A stretch of 64,000 nucleotides of DNA from Minisyncoccota bacterium (GCA_022841645.1 JALHRC010000001.1:33346-97345); one strand, 5' to 3'; counted from the first letter of the stretch, positions 1,567 through 52,467 are shown. The notes: generated from the sequence alone by a model not told the origin. Made by a program: numbers and translations.

Positions 1567-2214
1567 ATGCAGTGGCTCATCGGTATCGACGAAGTGGGGC
1601 GGGGGCCTTTGGCGGGGCCAGTGATGGTCGGGGTGGTGGCCGTTCCTGTTGATTTTGATTGGACGTTGTTGCCTGGAGTTACTGATAGTAAAAAGCTGTC
1701 GGAAAAGCGGCGGGAAGCAATTTACAAAAATGCAAATGATTTGCAAGGTCAGGGGAAGCTTATATATAGGGTTGCGGGTGAGTCGGCGCAGGTGATTGAC
1801 GAAATCGGCATCGTTCCTGCTATTAAGCTTGCGCTTGAACGAGCGCTTGGCGAAGTGATGGAGCAAGTACAAATTTCCCCGAGGACCGACCTCGGGATAA
1901 AAAACCCGAGGTCGGTCCTCGGGTTTGACGGTGTGTTGGTGAAGCTCGACGGTGGTTTGGTGGCACCTCCCGAATACGTACATCAGGAGACAATTATCAA
2001 GGGGGATGGCAGCGAGCCGGTAATTGGTCTTGCGTCCATCGTGGCCAAGGTGACGCGTGATCGGGAAATGGTGCGGTTGTCGAGCGAGTACTCTGGGTAT
2101 GACTTGGATGTACATAAGGGGTATGGGACGGCGGCGCACTGCGCAGCGGTGCGCCGCCTCGGCCTTTCTCCGCTGCATCGGCGTAGCTTCTGTCGTAACC
2201 TAGTAGCGCGTTAG
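1567..2214 (+). CDS. rnhB: Ribonuclease HII
   Basis: MQWLIGIDEVGRGPLAGPVMVGVVAV... is the typical RNase HII N-terminus with the DEVGRG motif. The start was taken at the internal ATG 1567 rather than the ORF-track start 1510. Confidence 0.85.
   Translation: MQWLIGIDEVGRGPLAGPVMVGVVAVPVDFDWTLLPGVTDSKKLSEKRREAIYKNANDLQGQGKLIYRVAGESAQVIDEIGIVPAIKLALERALGEVMEQVQISPRTDLGIKNPRSVLGFDGVLVKLDGGLVAPPEYVHQETIIKGDGSEPVIGLASIVAKVTRDREMVRLSSEYSGYDLDVHKGYGTAAHCAAVRRLGLSPLHRRSFCRNLVAR
1877..1923. repeat. Palindromic mini-element (RPE-like) inserted in-frame inside rnhB
   Basis: ccccgaggaccgacctcggg-ataaaaaa-cccgaggtcggtcctcggg: two perfectly complementary 19-20-nt arms. It translates in the rnhB frame as ...SPRTDLGIKNPRSVLG.... 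A second copy sits in prmC (36607..36650). Confidence 0.7.
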
Positions 2215-10296: not shown

Positions 10297-10365
10297 AAAT
10301 AAAAACGCATAACTATTTCATAATAGACTCAAGTACCTTCATGTTGTGATGAGGGCCTTGCGCAG

Positions 10366-10417
10366 ATACACCGAAAATCACCGCGATCCTAGGATCGCGG
10401 TGATTTTCGGTGTATCG
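10366..10417. repeat. 52-nt perfect palindrome (hairpin) between convergent smc and rnr
   Basis: gatacaccgaaaatcaccgcgatccta|ggatcgcggtgattttcggtgtatc, exact. It could serve as a bidirectional terminator. Confidence 0.6.
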
Positions 10418-10493
10418 AGCAGAGGGGCATGGTTCTCCATCAAGAGAACCGTGAACACGTGCCCGAGGCGCGACGTGAAGGTGCCTAAGTAGG

Positions 10494-12434
10494 TTACGCC
10501 ACTAATTCAAAATCAAGTTGTCGCTCATCCTTGAGTACCTTCACTAATTTGATTTTTATCTCATCACCAAGGCGATAAATCTTGCCGGTCTTTTGTCCCT
10601 TCACACGGTAGTTCTTGGGGTCGTGCTCGTAGTAGTCGCCCTTGATGGCAGCCAGGCGCACCATTCCTTCAGTCAGCGAAGCCTTGTCTTGTACGTACAC
10701 ACCCCAGTCGCTCACGCCGGTAATGACGCCATCAAACGTGTGGCCAATGCGATTTTGCATGTACTCGACCTGTTTGAATTTAATCGAGTCGCGTTCAGCA
10801 GAGACAGCCTCCGCTTCGCGTTGTGACGATTGAATAGCAAGTTTCTCATAGTGGGCGAGCTCACCACCCTTGATGCCCGAATGGTCGAGATGGCGGCGCA
10901 AAAGACGGTGGGCCATGAGGTCGGGGTAGCGACGAATCGGGGAAGTAAAGTGTGTGTAGTACTTAAAGGCGAGACCAAAGTGGCCGATATTGCGCGTCGA
11001 GTAGACTGCCTTCGCCATGCTGCGGATGGTGGCGGTTTTGATGAGGTTTGCTTCGGGCTTGCCTTCCACTTCAGCGAGGAGCTTATTAACATTCTTCGCC
11101 GTGACGACCCCTTTGTGAGTTTCGAACTCATAGCCCAGGGCATTGAGAAACAGCGAGAGCCCTTCGATTTTGTCGGGGTTGGGTGTGTCGTGGATGCGGT
11201 AGATAAAGGCGAGGTCACGCCCGCTGTCTTTGGCAAGGTCGTAGATGTAGGTGGCCACCTCACGGTTGGCGAGCAGCATGAAATCCTCGATCATCATCAT
11301 GGTCTCGGTGCGGACTTTGGTATAGACGCGAATGGGGGCGCCGCGCTCGTCGAGCTCAAATTTCACCTCGGGCTGTTCAAAAGCAATCGCGCCCTCGCGG
11401 TAGCGTTCTTTGCGTAAAAGGCGTCCTTGGGTCATGAGCGTCGTGAGCTCACCATGAAAAGGTCCCTCACCACGGTCGAGGACTTCCTGCGCTTCTTCAT
11501 AGCTAAAACGTTTGTTGGAGTGGATGACGGTCTGTCCGTACCAGGCGTTCACAATATCTGCGCTGGGAGTGAGTTCAAAGATGGCTGAGAAGGCGAGGCG
11601 ATCTTCGTTTGGTCGTAGAGAACAGAGGTCATTACTGAGCACTTCGGGAAGCATTGGAATGACGCGGTCTACTAAATAGACCGAGGTGCCGCGCTCCTGT
11701 GCTTCTTTATCAATCGGCTCGCCGTCGCGCACGTAGTGGGAGACGTCGGCGATATGAATACCGACCTCGATGTTGCCCGAAGGGAGGGTGCGGACCGATA
11801 AGGCGTCGTCAAAGTCTTTTGCGTCCGCGGGGTCGATGGTCATAGTGGTGACGTCGCGCAGATCGCGGCGCTGTGGATCGGCGAGCGCTTCACGGAAAAT
11901 TTCGTCGCGGCGCGCGTGGATATCTTCGGCTGCTTTGGCTACTTCTGCCGGAAAGTCGACGGCAAACCCGCCACCGCGAATGATGGCGCGCATTTCTGTC
12001 TCATGATCACCTGAGCGTCCCAAGATCTCAATGATAGAGGCTTTGGGTTCTTGCTTGGGGTCAGTCCAGTCGGTGAGTGTGATTACGACCTTCATGCCTG
12101 TCTCTCCGGCGGCTTCAGCGGGGAGGGTAGGGCGGACATGGATACGGTGATTATCGGGCTGGAGATAGAGGCTCGTGCGATCACCGGGAGTGCGCTCTTT
12201 CACAATACCGATAAGCTCACGGTGGACGCGCTCGAGCACTTTTACCACTGTCCCCTCTGCCCGCTGCCCAGCCTGTGGCGGGGTATAGGTTACTTCGACA
12301 ATATCGCCATCGAGCGCGAGGCCCAGGCGGTCGCGTTCAATAACAATATCTTGGGTAAGATCAGGGTGGGCGAGGAAGCCGGTGCCCTTGCCGCGGATCA
12401 TGATGGGTCCAGCGACGGTATGTAGCGTAGTCAC
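10494..12434 (-). CDS. rnr: Ribonuclease R / RNase II-family 3'-5' exoribonuclease
   Basis: 646 aa with a central RNB catalytic domain and a C-terminal S1 domain (...GVITGVSDWGVYVQ...). Confidence 0.8.
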   Translation of the reverse strand: MTTLHTVAGPIMIRGKGTGFLAHPDLTQDIVIERDRLGLALDGDIVEVTYTPPQAGQRAEGTVVKVLERVHRELIGIVKERTPGDRTSLYLQPDNHRIHVRPTLPAEAAGETGMKVVITLTDWTDPKQEPKASIIEILGRSGDHETEMRAIIRGGGFAVDFPAEVAKAAEDIHARRDEIFREALADPQRRDLRDVTTMTIDPADAKDFDDALSVRTLPSGNIEVGIHIADVSHYVRDGEPIDKEAQERGTSVYLVDRVIPMLPEVLSNDLCSLRPNEDRLAFSAIFELTPSADIVNAWYGQTVIHSNKRFSYEEAQEVLDRGEGPFHGELTTLMTQGRLLRKERYREGAIAFEQPEVKFELDERGAPIRVYTKVRTETMMMIEDFMLLANREVATYIYDLAKDSGRDLAFIYRIHDTPNPDKIEGLSLFLNALGYEFETHKGVVTAKNVNKLLAEVEGKPEANLIKTATIRSMAKAVYSTRNIGHFGLAFKYYTHFTSPIRRYPDLMAHRLLRRHLDHSGIKGGELAHYEKLAIQSSQREAEAVSAERDSIKFKQVEYMQNRIGHTFDGVITGVSDWGVYVQDKASLTEGMVRLAAIKGDYYEHDPKNYRVKGQKTGKIYRLGDEIKIKLVKVLKDERQLDFELVA

Positions 12435-22212: not shown

Positions 22213-22256
22213 CAGCAGCACTACTACTATCATGCATGATAGTAGTAGTGCTGCTG
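22213..22256. repeat. 44-nt perfect palindrome centred on ATGCAT
   Basis: cagcagcactactactatcatg|catgatagtagtagtgctgctg, exact. Confidence 0.7.
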
Positions 22257-36073: not shown

Positions 36074-36919
36074 TTATTGTAGCACCAAGATAGAAAAGCG
36101 CAGGACACCAAATTGGTCGCTGTGGGAACTCGCAGTAAAGCCATGGGTGTGGGCGAGGTCCGTAACGATGGGCACGTGTTCGGGTTCGTGTTCGATCCAT
36201 AGCTCTCCGCTCGCCGTAAGGTGCCCCCGGGCTCCCTTAATGATTCGTTCGATGATTTCTATACCACCTTGCCCGCCATAGAGCGCTAGGTGTGGTTCAT
36301 GCCTTTTGACAGACTGTTCAGCTCGGTCGATAGCGGGGTCAATATACGGTGGATTGGCAAGGATGAAATCAAATGTACCTGCTACCTGTTCAAACAAATC
36401 AGAACAAAGGAGAATAGTACGATCGATCGTACTATTCTTGCGGCGGTTCTTTTCAATGGTCGGGAGGTGAGTGGGGTCAATCTCGGCGAAGGTGACGTGC
36501 GCACCTCGTACATGCTTTGCGATCGCTACACCGATACAGCCCGAGCCAGCGCAGAGGTCAAGGATGGAAATGTCACCGGCCGCTTGGCTCTGTACAACAC
36601 TGTCTTCCCCCGAGGACCGACCTCGGGTAAATCCGAGGTCGGTTCTCGGGACAGTGATTTCCATTATGTTTGCCCCTAGGCTCTCCCTGGGGATAGCCTT
36701 GCTAATGCTGGCAACGGCCTTTTCTACCCACCACTCGGTTTCGGGGCGGGGGATGAGTGGACGACTATCGAGCCAGATTTTGCAACCCAAAAACGGTACC
36801 CAACCAATCACATAGCTGAGCGGTTCCCCAGCTTTAAGACGCTCACAATCGGCCGAAAAACCCGCGGTTTTTCGGCCGAGATATTTCTCGTTTAGTAGCC
36901 AGTTGATGTCTTGCTCCAT
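36074..36919 (-). CDS. prmC: Release-factor glutamine N5-methyltransferase (PrmC/HemK)
   Basis: ...LDLCAGSGCIGVAIA... (SAM motif I) and ...FDFILANPPYI... (NPPY). The true start is likely ATG 36919 (MEQDINWLLNEKYLGRK...); the long ORF-track N-terminal extension has no homology pattern. Confidence 0.75.
   Translation of the reverse strand: MEQDINWLLNEKYLGRKTAGFSADCERLKAGEPLSYVIGWVPFLGCKIWLDSRPLIPRPETEWWVEKAVASISKAIPRESLGANIMEITVPRTDLGFTRGRSSGEDSVVQSQAAGDISILDLCAGSGCIGVAIAKHVRGAHVTFAEIDPTHLPTIEKNRRKNSTIDRTILLCSDLFEQVAGTFDFILANPPYIDPAIDRAEQSVKRHEPHLALYGGQGGIEIIERIIKGARGHLTASGELWIEHEPEHVPIVTDLAHTHGFTASSHSDQFGVLRFSILVLQ
36607..36650. repeat. Second copy of the palindromic RPE-like mini-element, in-frame inside prmC
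   Basis: cccccgaggaccgacctcggg-taaat-ccgaggtcggttctcggg, with one mismatch in the right arm. In the prmC frame it encodes ...VPRTDLGFTRGRSSGE..., the same PRTDLG peptide as the rnhB copy. Confidence 0.7.
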
Positions 36920-37524: not shown

Positions 37525-38280
37525 ATGGCTACGCCAATGCTCGAAATTAAAAATCTGACCAAGGTGTATGGAAAAGGTAAGAGTGAGAAGGTGGCCGTAA
37601 GTGGTATTTCGCTCACGGTCGAGCGCGGGGCGTTTTTTGGCCTCCTTGGCCCGAACGGAGCAGGGAAGTCGACCACTATTCATTGTATTACTGGCATCGC
37701 TCAGCCCACTTCGGGTCAGATTTTGATTGATGGCACTGACGTGGTCACCGACTATAAAGTAGCGCGTACCAAGGTCGGCCTTTCGCCACAAGAATTCAAT
37801 GTGGATATTTTTGCTACTCCTGAGCAGCTCATGGACTATATGGGTGGTTACTACAGTATTCCAGCGGCAGCGCGGAAGACGCGTGTCGACGAGCTTATCA
37901 AGCGCTTTGATCTAGAAGAGCACCGCAACGTAAAGTTTCAAAAGCTTTCAGGTGGGCTCAAACGCCGAGCGATGCTGGGGAGGGCGCTCGTCCATACGCC
38001 CGACCTGCTTATTCTCGACGAGCCCACCGCCGGGGTGGACGTTGAGCAGCGCCGTGATCTCTGGGCCTACCTTAAAGAAATGAATGAGGCGGGGAAGACC
38101 ATCATTCTTACCTCTCACTACCTCGAAGAAATCCAGTACCTCTGCAACGAAATTGCGATTATTAATCATGGACGGATTGTGGCTGAGGGGACGAAGGAAG
38201 AATTTATGAAGGATGGTAAATCGGTTGAAGAGCGGTATCTCGAAATTACCCGCGCGGATGATAAAAAGAACTCCACATGA
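37525..38280 (+). CDS. ABC transporter ATP-binding protein (ABC-2 exporter type)
   Basis: Walker A GPNGAGKST, signature LSGGLKRR, Walker B LLILDEPTAGVD. Confidence 0.85.
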   Translation: MATPMLEIKNLTKVYGKGKSEKVAVSGISLTVERGAFFGLLGPNGAGKSTTIHCITGIAQPTSGQILIDGTDVVTDYKVARTKVGLSPQEFNVDIFATPEQLMDYMGGYYSIPAAARKTRVDELIKRFDLEEHRNVKFQKLSGGLKRRAMLGRALVHTPDLLILDEPTAGVDVEQRRDLWAYLKEMNEAGKTIILTSHYLEEIQYLCNEIAIINHGRIVAEGTKEEFMKDGKSVEERYLEITRADDKKNST

Positions 38281-38561
38281 ATCCTGTTACAGTTAAGAAA
38301 AGTTGGTATACCTACGTACTGCAGTCGCTTGCTGATGGTAACTTTTATACTGGAAGTACAGGTGACTTACGAAAGCGAATGAGTGAGCATCGTTCAGGAA
38401 AAACAACCTCGACACGGCACAGACAGCCGCTAGAGCTCATTTATTATGAAATGTGCTTAAGTGAGACCGATGCTCGCGCACGCGAAATATATCTCAAGTC
38501 CGGAATGGGGAAACGATATTTGCGTAATAGACTTACTAGCTTTCTAACTGTAACAGGATGA
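38277..38561 (+). CDS. Free-standing GIY-YIG nuclease-domain protein
   Basis: 94 aa with WYTYVLQSLADGNFYTGSTGDLRKRMSEH (GIY..YIG, Arg and Glu present). Its start overlaps the ATPase stop (ATGA) and its stop overlaps the permease start (ATGA). Confidence 0.7.
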   Translation: MNPVTVKKSWYTYVLQSLADGNFYTGSTGDLRKRMSEHRSGKTTSTRHRQPLELIYYEMCLSETDARAREIYLKSGMGKRYLRNRLTSFLTVTG

Positions 38562-48152: not shown

Positions 48153-48427
48153 AAAAGCTAACGCTCAAAAAAATAGTAAGCAAAGAAACTTCCAACACTG
48201 CACGAATATGGCAATGCACCTCTGTTCTTTCTCTAGAGGGTGCAGGAGTGTAATGAGAGGGCGAACGTGTCGCCGCGCAGCCTAAGAGCCCTGCACGCAA
48301 TTCCTAAGGTGCCGTTACACTAACATGAAGTAAGCTAAAGGTCAATCACCTACACGAGCACGCTGCTGTCTCGCCTCGGGCACGTGTTCACTGTTCTCTT
48401 TTAGGGAGAACAGTGCCCCTCTGCTCG

Positions 48428-48475
48428 CAGCACGGAAAAGCACCAGACATTTGTCTGGTGCTTTTCCGTGCTGCT
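48428..48475. terminator. 23-bp perfect palindromic hairpin (terminator of apbE operon / 5'UTR structure of helicase)
   Basis: gcagcacggaaaagcaccagaca-ttt-gtctggtgcttttccgtgctgc. Confidence 0.6.
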
Positions 48476-48542
48476 GCGCAAGGCCCCCATCGCGACACCA
48501 GCGTGCTCGTAATCAAAGTAAGGTCAGATTTCCACGGGCTTT

Positions 48543-52320: not shown

Positions 52321-52467
52321 AGCGTCACGGCAGCAATTGTTCGGCACGCGTCTCGTTTTCTCTTGGGGGAGAAAACACGCGCTCCCGCTCAGGGTGGTAC
52401 TTTTCTCAAGCAGGCTTGAGAAAAGTACCACCCTTCCGCGAGACCTCACATTTGCTGCCGTGACGCT
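52321..52467. repeat. Nested inverted-repeat element (16-bp perfect outer arms, 20-bp inner hairpin, extra 8-bp hairpin)
   Basis: Outer arms are agcgtcacggcagcaa ... ttgctgccgtgacgct. Inner hairpin is agggtggtacttttctcaag-caggc-cttgagaaaagtaccaccct. It also contains gctcccgctc and a ccgcgag motif, as in the 10158..10296 element. Confidence 0.6.

Follow-up and report, generated by a model that had tools for sequence, protein, structure and literature searches.

The 64,000-nucleotide stretch of a Minisyncoccota genome that we analyzed (hereafter, the window) carries the gene prmC, which encodes a release-factor glutamine N5-methyltransferase. The identity of this gene is secure. Its product matches Escherichia coli HemK (2B3T/1T43), its AlphaFold model compares with the E. 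coli PrmC structures 2B3T/1T43 at TM scores of 0.72–0.76, and homologues from Patescibacteria and Parcubacteria bear the annotation of release-factor glutamine methyltransferase. Inside prmC lies a palindrome (positions 36609–36650, read from the sequence) made of an arm CCCGAGGACCGACCTCGGG (36609–36627), the spacer TAAAT (36628–36632), and a second arm CCGAGGTCGGTTCTCGGG (36633–36650). A sister copy of this palindrome is found in rnhB, the gene for RNase HII. The two loci comprise the following features:

1567–2214, plus strand: host gene rnhB (RNase HII), with the insert in the loop between helix 82–101 and strand 123–128
1878–1923, plus strand: rnhB copy, a perfect doublet A - ATAAAAAA - A', in frame, reading PRTDLGIKNPRSVLG
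36074–36919, minus strand: host gene prmC (release-factor glutamine N5-methyltransferase), 281 aa
36569–36700, minus strand: expanded PrmC linker, residues ~74–117, between helix 59–75 and strand 117–122
36598–36603, no strand assigned: outer flank CACTGT, pairing with ACAGTG at 36651–36656 (flank consensus of the family CTNT...ANAG)
36609–36627, no strand assigned: unit A, a 19-nt mini-hairpin (stem CCCGAGG, loop ACCGA, stem CCTCGGG), left arm of the doublet, its minus-strand reading being part of ...RGRSSG
36628–36632, no strand assigned: spacer TAAAT, loop of the long hairpin
36633–36650, no strand assigned: inverted unit A', one mismatch at 36644, minus-strand reading PRTDLG
36651–36656, no strand assigned: outer flank ACAGTG, complementary to 36598–36603
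36673–36692, minus strand: degenerate third unit CCCCAGGGAGAGCCTAGGGG, reading PRESLG in prmC

The arms of the prmC palindrome pair over 18 bp with one mismatch, a T at position 36644; scored over 19 bp, they show two mismatches. This bears out the sequence-only reading, which had reported a palindrome with a single mismatch in its right arm. In the folded structure, the outer flanks CACTGT and ACAGTG lengthen the helix past a 5-nt bulge. Folded as RNA, the palindromes reach −41 to −46 kcal/mol, with z-scores between −5.7 and −8.1. The sequence that comes after the hairpin on the prmC sense strand is GGAAGACAG, without the T-tract of an intrinsic terminator. The palindrome is translated in the prmC frame, on the minus strand, as PRTDLGFTRGRSSG, without any break of the frame; the translated element reads TVPRTDLGFTRGRSSGE and its wider context in the protein is EITVPRTDLGFTRGRSSGEDSVV. 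The insert had been described as lying immediately upstream of the motif LDLCAGSG. It is near this motif but not adjacent to it, as it ends 15 residues before. The rnhB copy has perfect 19-bp arms separated by an 8-nt spacer, and its translation is SPRTDLGIKNPRSVLG. Within the window, the arm has seven matches with up to three mismatches for 0.10 expected, which excludes a chance origin.

In the AlphaFold model of PrmC (mean pLDDT 83.7), residues 79–116 have a pLDDT of ~38–66 and no secondary structure. The insert is located in the connection between helix 59–75 and strand β1 (117–122), where E. coli PrmC has four residues; the linker of the window PrmC is ~40 residues longer. In class I methyltransferases, this connection enters β1 on the side opposite the SAM pocket. 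Proximity of the insert to the SAM motif in the sequence therefore does not imply proximity to the active site. As to whether an insert would be tolerated near the active site, the question had been one of modeling PrmC with and without it; the model built is that of the insert-bearing protein, and it places the insert in a low-pLDDT, unstructured stretch, consistent with tolerance. Similarly, the model of RNase HII (mean pLDDT 87.6) has insert residues ~102–122 at a pLDDT of 53–62, without secondary structure. As modeled, both the PrmC and the RNase HII inserts look like tolerated, disordered surface loops.

Assembly or read errors had also been considered as a source of the two palindromes. 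They are not an artifact of the window, since independent assemblies carry both copies. Thirteen contigs encode an identical PrmC protein, and both of the loci that were read, from two independent runs (SRR28154526 and SRR28154518), contain the hairpin. The rnhB copy is also present in a third run (SRR28154530). Related units occur at the same sites in orthologues from other projects, and the reading frames are intact.

Other features of the window were recorded. Two structured intergenic copies of ~150 nt (10342–10494, plus strand, and 48348–48497, minus strand) are ~80% identical and share the layout conserved GGGCCTTGCGCAG, long perfect hairpin, CGAGCAGAGGGGCA, second hairpin, GTGAACACGTGCCCGAGGCG. 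The arms of their long hairpin are wholly different between the two copies, yet still complementary. This element has no Rfam match and has the appearance of a MITE or of a structured RNA that lacks an annotation. Perfect or near-perfect palindromes with 21- to 29-nt arms are found in intergenic DNA, for example after rpoC, at 22213–22256, 52391–52434, and 10155–10183/10271–10299, and may represent terminators or members of other repeat families. A stand-alone 94-aa GIY-YIG ORF (38277–38561, plus strand) lies between an ABC ATPase and an ABC permease gene, with a 4-nt overlap at the ATPase stop. Three related genomes (contigs L004, L005, and L006) lack it at this position, which suggests a mobile nuclease gene. 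The cumulative GC skew rises monotonically over positions 1–64000. In the 64 kb, no tRNA gene was found and no Rfam family reached its gathering score, the only sub-threshold Rfam matches being to generic hairpins (miRNA precursor).

Anatomy and conservation of the 19-nt unit

The basic unit of the repeat is not the 44-nt palindrome but its 19-nt arm, itself a mini-hairpin with a 7-bp stem and a 5-nt loop. The 44-nt prmC palindrome is an inverted doublet of this unit. In the window, each arm matches its own reverse complement with three mismatches. According to the alignment of 28 distinct contexts, the unit and its flanks CTNT...ANAG form an 11-bp stem of ~27 nt in total. Inverted doublets were identified at positions 1878–1923 and 36609–36650 of the window and on contigs L003, L005, L025, L026, and L036. 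The doublet spacer ranges from 2 to 12 nt, and the number, orientation, and reading frame of the units vary as well. The prmC orthologue on L004 contains two direct copies of CCCGAGGACAGAGCTCGGGACAG, whereas the units are inverted elsewhere; L004 also shows a local 23-nt direct duplication. The orthologue on L005 carries a perfect palindrome with 20-bp arms, CCCAAGGTCCGACCTCGGGC-TA-GCCCGAGGTCGGACCTTGGG, together with an extra unit CCCGAGGCGAGACCTCGGG, and the one on L006 harbors two units with different loops. On L036, the long arms are perfect over 20 bp despite a mismatch in the mini-stem.

We did not observe any GTAG or CGTC tag, nor any target-site duplication, in the 28 distinct flank contexts. 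The unit resembles intragenic REP and RPE elements but is a sequence class of its own, and the missing tag places it outside the GTAG and CGTC classes of REPs. Two other assignments were discarded. A recombinase core site is ruled out by the variable length of the spacers. As for a DNA uptake sequence, CCCGAGG and CCTCGGG occur 8 and 12 times, respectively, in the 64 kb, which is near expectation once the elements themselves are discounted.

Across hosts, the second arm is read in three frames, giving PRSVLG, RGRSSG, or PEVGPR, which speaks strongly against selection for the peptide. The codons used in the units are also distinctive. Arginine is encoded by AGG or AGA in all 15 units with available DNA, compared with 1% of the 619 arginine codons of 16 window genes, and glycine by GGG in 12 of 15 cases for a background of 13%. 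The unit is conserved at the nucleotide and not at the peptide level.

The two arms of a doublet change together. Doublets with both arms in frame 2 are compatible with reverse complementarity in 9 of 12 cases (chance 0.5–0.8%), with eight different cores (e.g., TD/SV, AT/VA, KG/PF, and EA/AS). Those combining frames 2 and 3 are compatible in 8 of 10 cases (chance 5–15%). At the DNA level, paired arm changes are exemplified by L005, L034, and L036. The 72%-identical rnhB orthologue on L034 reads CCTAGG/CCTAGG, compared with CCGAGG/CCTCGG in the window, a paired change within the mini-stem. The two window loci carry an identical unit, and the orthologous units of relatives differ. Taken from the sequences, this pattern points to homogenization within the genome or to replacement by a dominant variant.

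Hot spots and distribution of the unit

For the census of the encoded peptides, 240 homologues were retrieved, with 81 PrmC proteins having clear anchors and 116 RNase HII. The PrmC linker, from the RPETE..E helix to LDLCAGSG, ranges from 8 to 99 residues among homologues. It contains the PRxxLG motif in 18 of the 81 proteins, and this motif is found nowhere else in PrmC. Similarly, the RNase HII loop ranges from 4 to 50 residues and carries PRxxLG in 34 of the 116 proteins (44 units), again with no occurrence elsewhere in the protein. In 41 kb of a related genome from the same sample, syntenic with the window (L004 and L034), units are present only in rnhB and prmC. Close orthologues without any unit have loops of 4–9 residues in RNase HII and of 8–12 residues in PrmC. 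On neighbor-joining trees, the distribution of the units requires at least 16 gains or losses for RNase HII (mean of 29 with shuffled tips) and at least 15 for PrmC (16.4 with shuffled tips). The two loops are therefore long-standing hot spots shared across orthologues, in which units are frequently lost, decay, or are replaced.

These data modify the earlier view of the two copies, according to which the same palindrome in two housekeeping genes was not a coincidence but argued for a mobile or duplicative element. Coincidence is indeed untenable, as both copies are members of a family of repeats dispersed at the DNA level. However, the shared PRTDLG core is a by-product of translation, and the copies are not two independent, fresh insertions, their sites being old shared hot spots.

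Two further observations concern insertions in PrmC homologues. P0114 carries an insert of ~29 residues, ADSEFDPPIPSSRRHREFPSGDETGIKAKQFA, before LIPRPETE, at another site (columns 70–98 of alignment A1); other loops of the PrmC family therefore accept insertions too. A second recurrent peptide, ESLGRERKD(P/R)xSPV, is present in the same PrmC linker in several lineages of other Patescibacteria (P0024, P0029, P0033, P0049, and P0086). It probably represents another in-frame repeat family sharing this hot spot.

A scan of one genome per species with the two-arm pattern yielded a single match, in a Candidatus Terrybacteria MAG of 39% GC. The doublet is in frame in an unrelated 418-aa protein, where it reads VIPRTDLGEPEVGPRGG. 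Scanning metagenome contigs with the single 19-mer identified 27 loci. About 15 of these are on low-GC contigs (33–50% GC), where less than one is expected by chance as estimated from base composition. About 12 others, in coding sequences of high-GC contigs (GC 0.60–0.74), were set aside as probable chance matches. The units of low-GC contigs are mostly single; they immediately follow a gene at its 3' end or lie in the gap separating two convergent ones (L007, L008, L019, L021, and L022). Their flanks often lengthen the single-unit stem, and a T-tract sometimes follows (L023 and L009). On L026, a copy is inserted in frame in the gene of a XerC/D-like recombinase (PF00589). Based on the names of its protein clusters, L007 groups with Levybacteria/Patescibacteria; in all, two of the contigs carrying the 19-mer could be assigned to Patescibacteria. 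The exact 19-mer, loop included, is therefore common to distant CPR groups.

The 19-mer had no match in viral contigs and the doublet none in phage records and plasmids. A concatenated 52-aa query of the PRTDLG type returned no candidates from a database of 5.8 billion proteins. The 9 kb of sequence beyond the window contains no further units, which brings the count to two loci, both intragenic, in ~73 kb of this genome. Two of the metagenome contigs have an unusual structure. L033 (1–1301), with a coverage of ~2, folds back perfectly around the 19-mer over at least 39 nt to either side; it probably results from chimeric assembly or from hairpin priming. L031 contains the 19-mer at 88–106 and 1084–1102, 996 nt apart, with 40+ nt of context at both ends. 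This pattern suggests a small circular or tandemly repeated molecule.

One contig, L024 (1,250 nt, 37% GC, low coverage), carries an exact unit 19 nt upstream of a truncated Y1_Tnp gene and a unit with one mismatch ~100 nt upstream of it, both preceded by CTGT. The ORF matches Pfam PF01797 (E = 3.5e-6, 27.6 bits for a cut-off of 23) and contains the HUH motif NHFHIL. Its best NCBIfam match, below the curated cut-off, is the REP-associated tyrosine transposase. Units beside a Y1 gene are the genomic signature of REP-RAYT systems (PMC3733652; PMC3116915). No Y1 gene was detected by tblastn with the L024 protein in the window or at the other loci. A Pfam scan of 20 genes in the 1–36 kb portion of the window, made in search of a mobilizing enzyme, identified housekeeping functions only. 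The Y1 link, seen in the sequence of a single 1.25-kb contig, is a lead rather than a proof.

Origin of the unit and relation to known repeats

These features are probably best explained by a REP/REPIN-like 19-nt hairpin repeat of Patescibacteria, tolerated in frame as intragenic REPs and RPEs are. Like REPs and REPINs, the unit is a short GC-rich stem-loop, with a 7- to 11-bp stem and a 5-nt loop, and occurs both as singletons and as inverted dimers that form one longer hairpin. Singletons follow genes directly at the 3' end or separate convergent genes. Some dimers are intragenic and encode 15–30 residues, often in genes of replication or repair (here rnhB and the XerC/D-like gene of L026), and on L024 two units lie in the 5' flank of a truncated Y1 transposase gene. 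Di Nocera et al. 2013 (PMC3733652) describe intragenic REPs as frequently dimeric, with 20–30 encoded residues, and as frequently located in genes for replication or repair. Vertically inherited REPINs persist at orthologous sites, like the hairpin units described here (bioRxiv 10.1101/2021.07.10.451892).

The unit differs from REPs and REPINs by the lack of GTAG/CGTC, by its CTNT...ANAG flanks, and by its doublet spacers of 2–12 nt. Its hosts are Patescibacteria, and our literature searches retrieved no REP/RAYT report for CPR bacteria, nor any report of such elements in CPR/Patescibacteria. Several points also count against the REP/REPIN-like reading. The copy number is low, the two loci in ~73 kb being far below classical REP densities, and no RAYT gene is present in these ~73 kb. 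Neither a tag nor a target-site duplication was seen in the 28 contexts, and no Y1 gene was detected in the window or at the other loci. In addition, the lasting presence of units with complementary arms at orthologous sites would also be in keeping with selection for the hairpin itself.

If the repeat is REP/REPIN-like, a GC-rich mini-hairpin CCCGAGG-N5-CCTCGGG would circulate in Patescibacteria, its inverted doublet in prmC being the REPIN-like form. The unit would be a DNA-level element whose ends are probably recognized in the form of a folded, single-stranded hairpin. Single units that directly follow genes sit in terminator-like positions, and single or paired units reside inside genes. 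There, a unit would survive only if it leaves the frame intact and falls within a permissive loop. Its translation would then yield a short disordered peptide that the enzyme tolerates, with the sequence PRxxLG, RGxxSG, or PExxPR according to the frame. In the structural models, the regions of in-frame units are of low confidence and without secondary structure, and may be read as disordered loops. A Y1 HUH transposase (RAYT or IS200-like) may propagate or homogenize the units through hairpins in single-stranded DNA. Existing units may in turn attract replacement or addition, keeping the hot spots populated, and the host protein would gain no benefit from the hairpin.

RPEs offer a second parallel. 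They are also palindromic repeats inserted in frame, and translated, in unrelated housekeeping genes of a reduced-genome bacterium. In-frame RPEs, summarized in a review of MITEs, are thought to be compatible with the protein fold (PMC10969869), and RPE-4 and RPE-6 are short REPs of the CGTC type (PMC3733652). However, classical RPEs are ~100–150 bp long and restricted to Rickettsia. The doublet of 44–46 bp described here, built from a 19-nt unit, is set apart by its length and by its host lineage, and many distantly related lineages carry units in the same loops. The unit is also distinct from MITEs, as it has no direct repeat, its flanks are complementary, and its size is below their range (50–500 bp). 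The prmC hairpin differs from an intrinsic terminator by the missing T-tract, whereas the singletons of L023 and L009 do fit one. Yeast mitochondrial GC clusters and "byp" elements are very short GC-rich hairpin mobile sequences of AT-richer genomes that may lie inside coding regions. They belong to a eukaryotic organelle and are unrelated in sequence, and byp elements are bypassed by the ribosome, whereas the units described here are in frame, without stops, and most simply translated.

An alternative that we regard as unlikely is that the hairpin is functional, vertically inherited, and kept by selection at the RNA or DNA level. A stem of −41 kcal/mol combined with rare AGG codons in the coding region could cause ribosome pausing, provide an RNase III site through which the mRNA levels of prmC and rnhB are tuned, or be bound by a sequence-specific protein. 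Such selection would account for units at orthologous positions in many lineages, for arms that remain complementary though their cores differ, for the paired mini-stem change between the window and its 72%-identical orthologue, for the conservation of the exact 19-mer and its loop between distant CPR groups, and for single units in terminator-like positions. However, many close orthologues, those with the short loops, lack the unit, and its presence on the PrmC tree is near random (15 changes compared with 16.4 after shuffling). The number, orientation, spacer, and frame of the units all vary, no Rfam family matches, and the prmC hairpin lacks a T-tract downstream on the sense strand. It is likewise doubtful that the hairpins, instead of being mere passengers, form an ancient system, inherited vertically, in the same permissive loops of housekeeping genes throughout Patescibacteria. 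Selection, or an enzyme dedicated to hairpin processing, would keep their arms complementary. The role of such a system could be, for instance, translational pausing or control of mRNA decay inside coding regions, or a long-term association of the REPIN-RAYT type in reduced genomes.

We consider improbable a local mutational origin without movement between sites, in which intramolecular template switching (quasipalindrome correction), together with slippage in a linker prone to repeats, would have produced the palindrome and kept it perfect. Quasipalindrome correction could explain the perfect arms and the extension of the stem into the flanks. The flanks of many units lengthen the stem with unrelated sequences (gaaat/atttc, cctt/aagg, and ctgt/acag), the long arms of L036 are perfect despite the mini-stem mismatch, and L004 shows the 23-nt direct duplication. 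However, this is a mutational process and not an element. It does not explain the dispersal of an identical 19-mer, loop included, to unlinked genes and to CPR lineages of 33–54% GC, nor the units adjoining a Y1 transposase gene. Template switching may act as a secondary process that perfects or lengthens the arms.

It is highly improbable that PRxxLG is a functional peptide motif selected at the protein level, the palindrome being incidental. Its recurrence at the same loops of two enzymes and the prevalence of the PRxxLG frame in the first arm are what such selection would produce, but the arginine and glycine codon bias, the three readings of the second arm, the presence of the same 19-mer in intergenic DNA, and the modeled disorder of the region all argue against it. 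Finally, despite the chimeric-looking fold-back of contig L033 around the unit, an assembly or amplification artifact can be dismissed almost with certainty in view of the 13 contigs, the several sequencing runs, the intact frames, and the related units at the same sites in orthologues from other projects.

Short palindromic repeats within genes are known from Proteobacteria, Verrucomicrobia, and Rickettsia, and the small genomes of CPR bacteria are usually thought to be poor in repetitive DNA. A REP/REPIN-like repeat in Patescibacteria would explain, by repeat DNA, length variation and PRxxLG low-complexity stretches in CPR proteins. It also marks permissive loops in PrmC and RNase HII, and is a warning to annotators and modelers that these segments are translated repeat DNA. 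As a tiny unit of 19–27 nt, shared by distant CPR groups and with covarying arms, it would provide a test of selfish DNA against a domesticated transposase partner or a functional structure.
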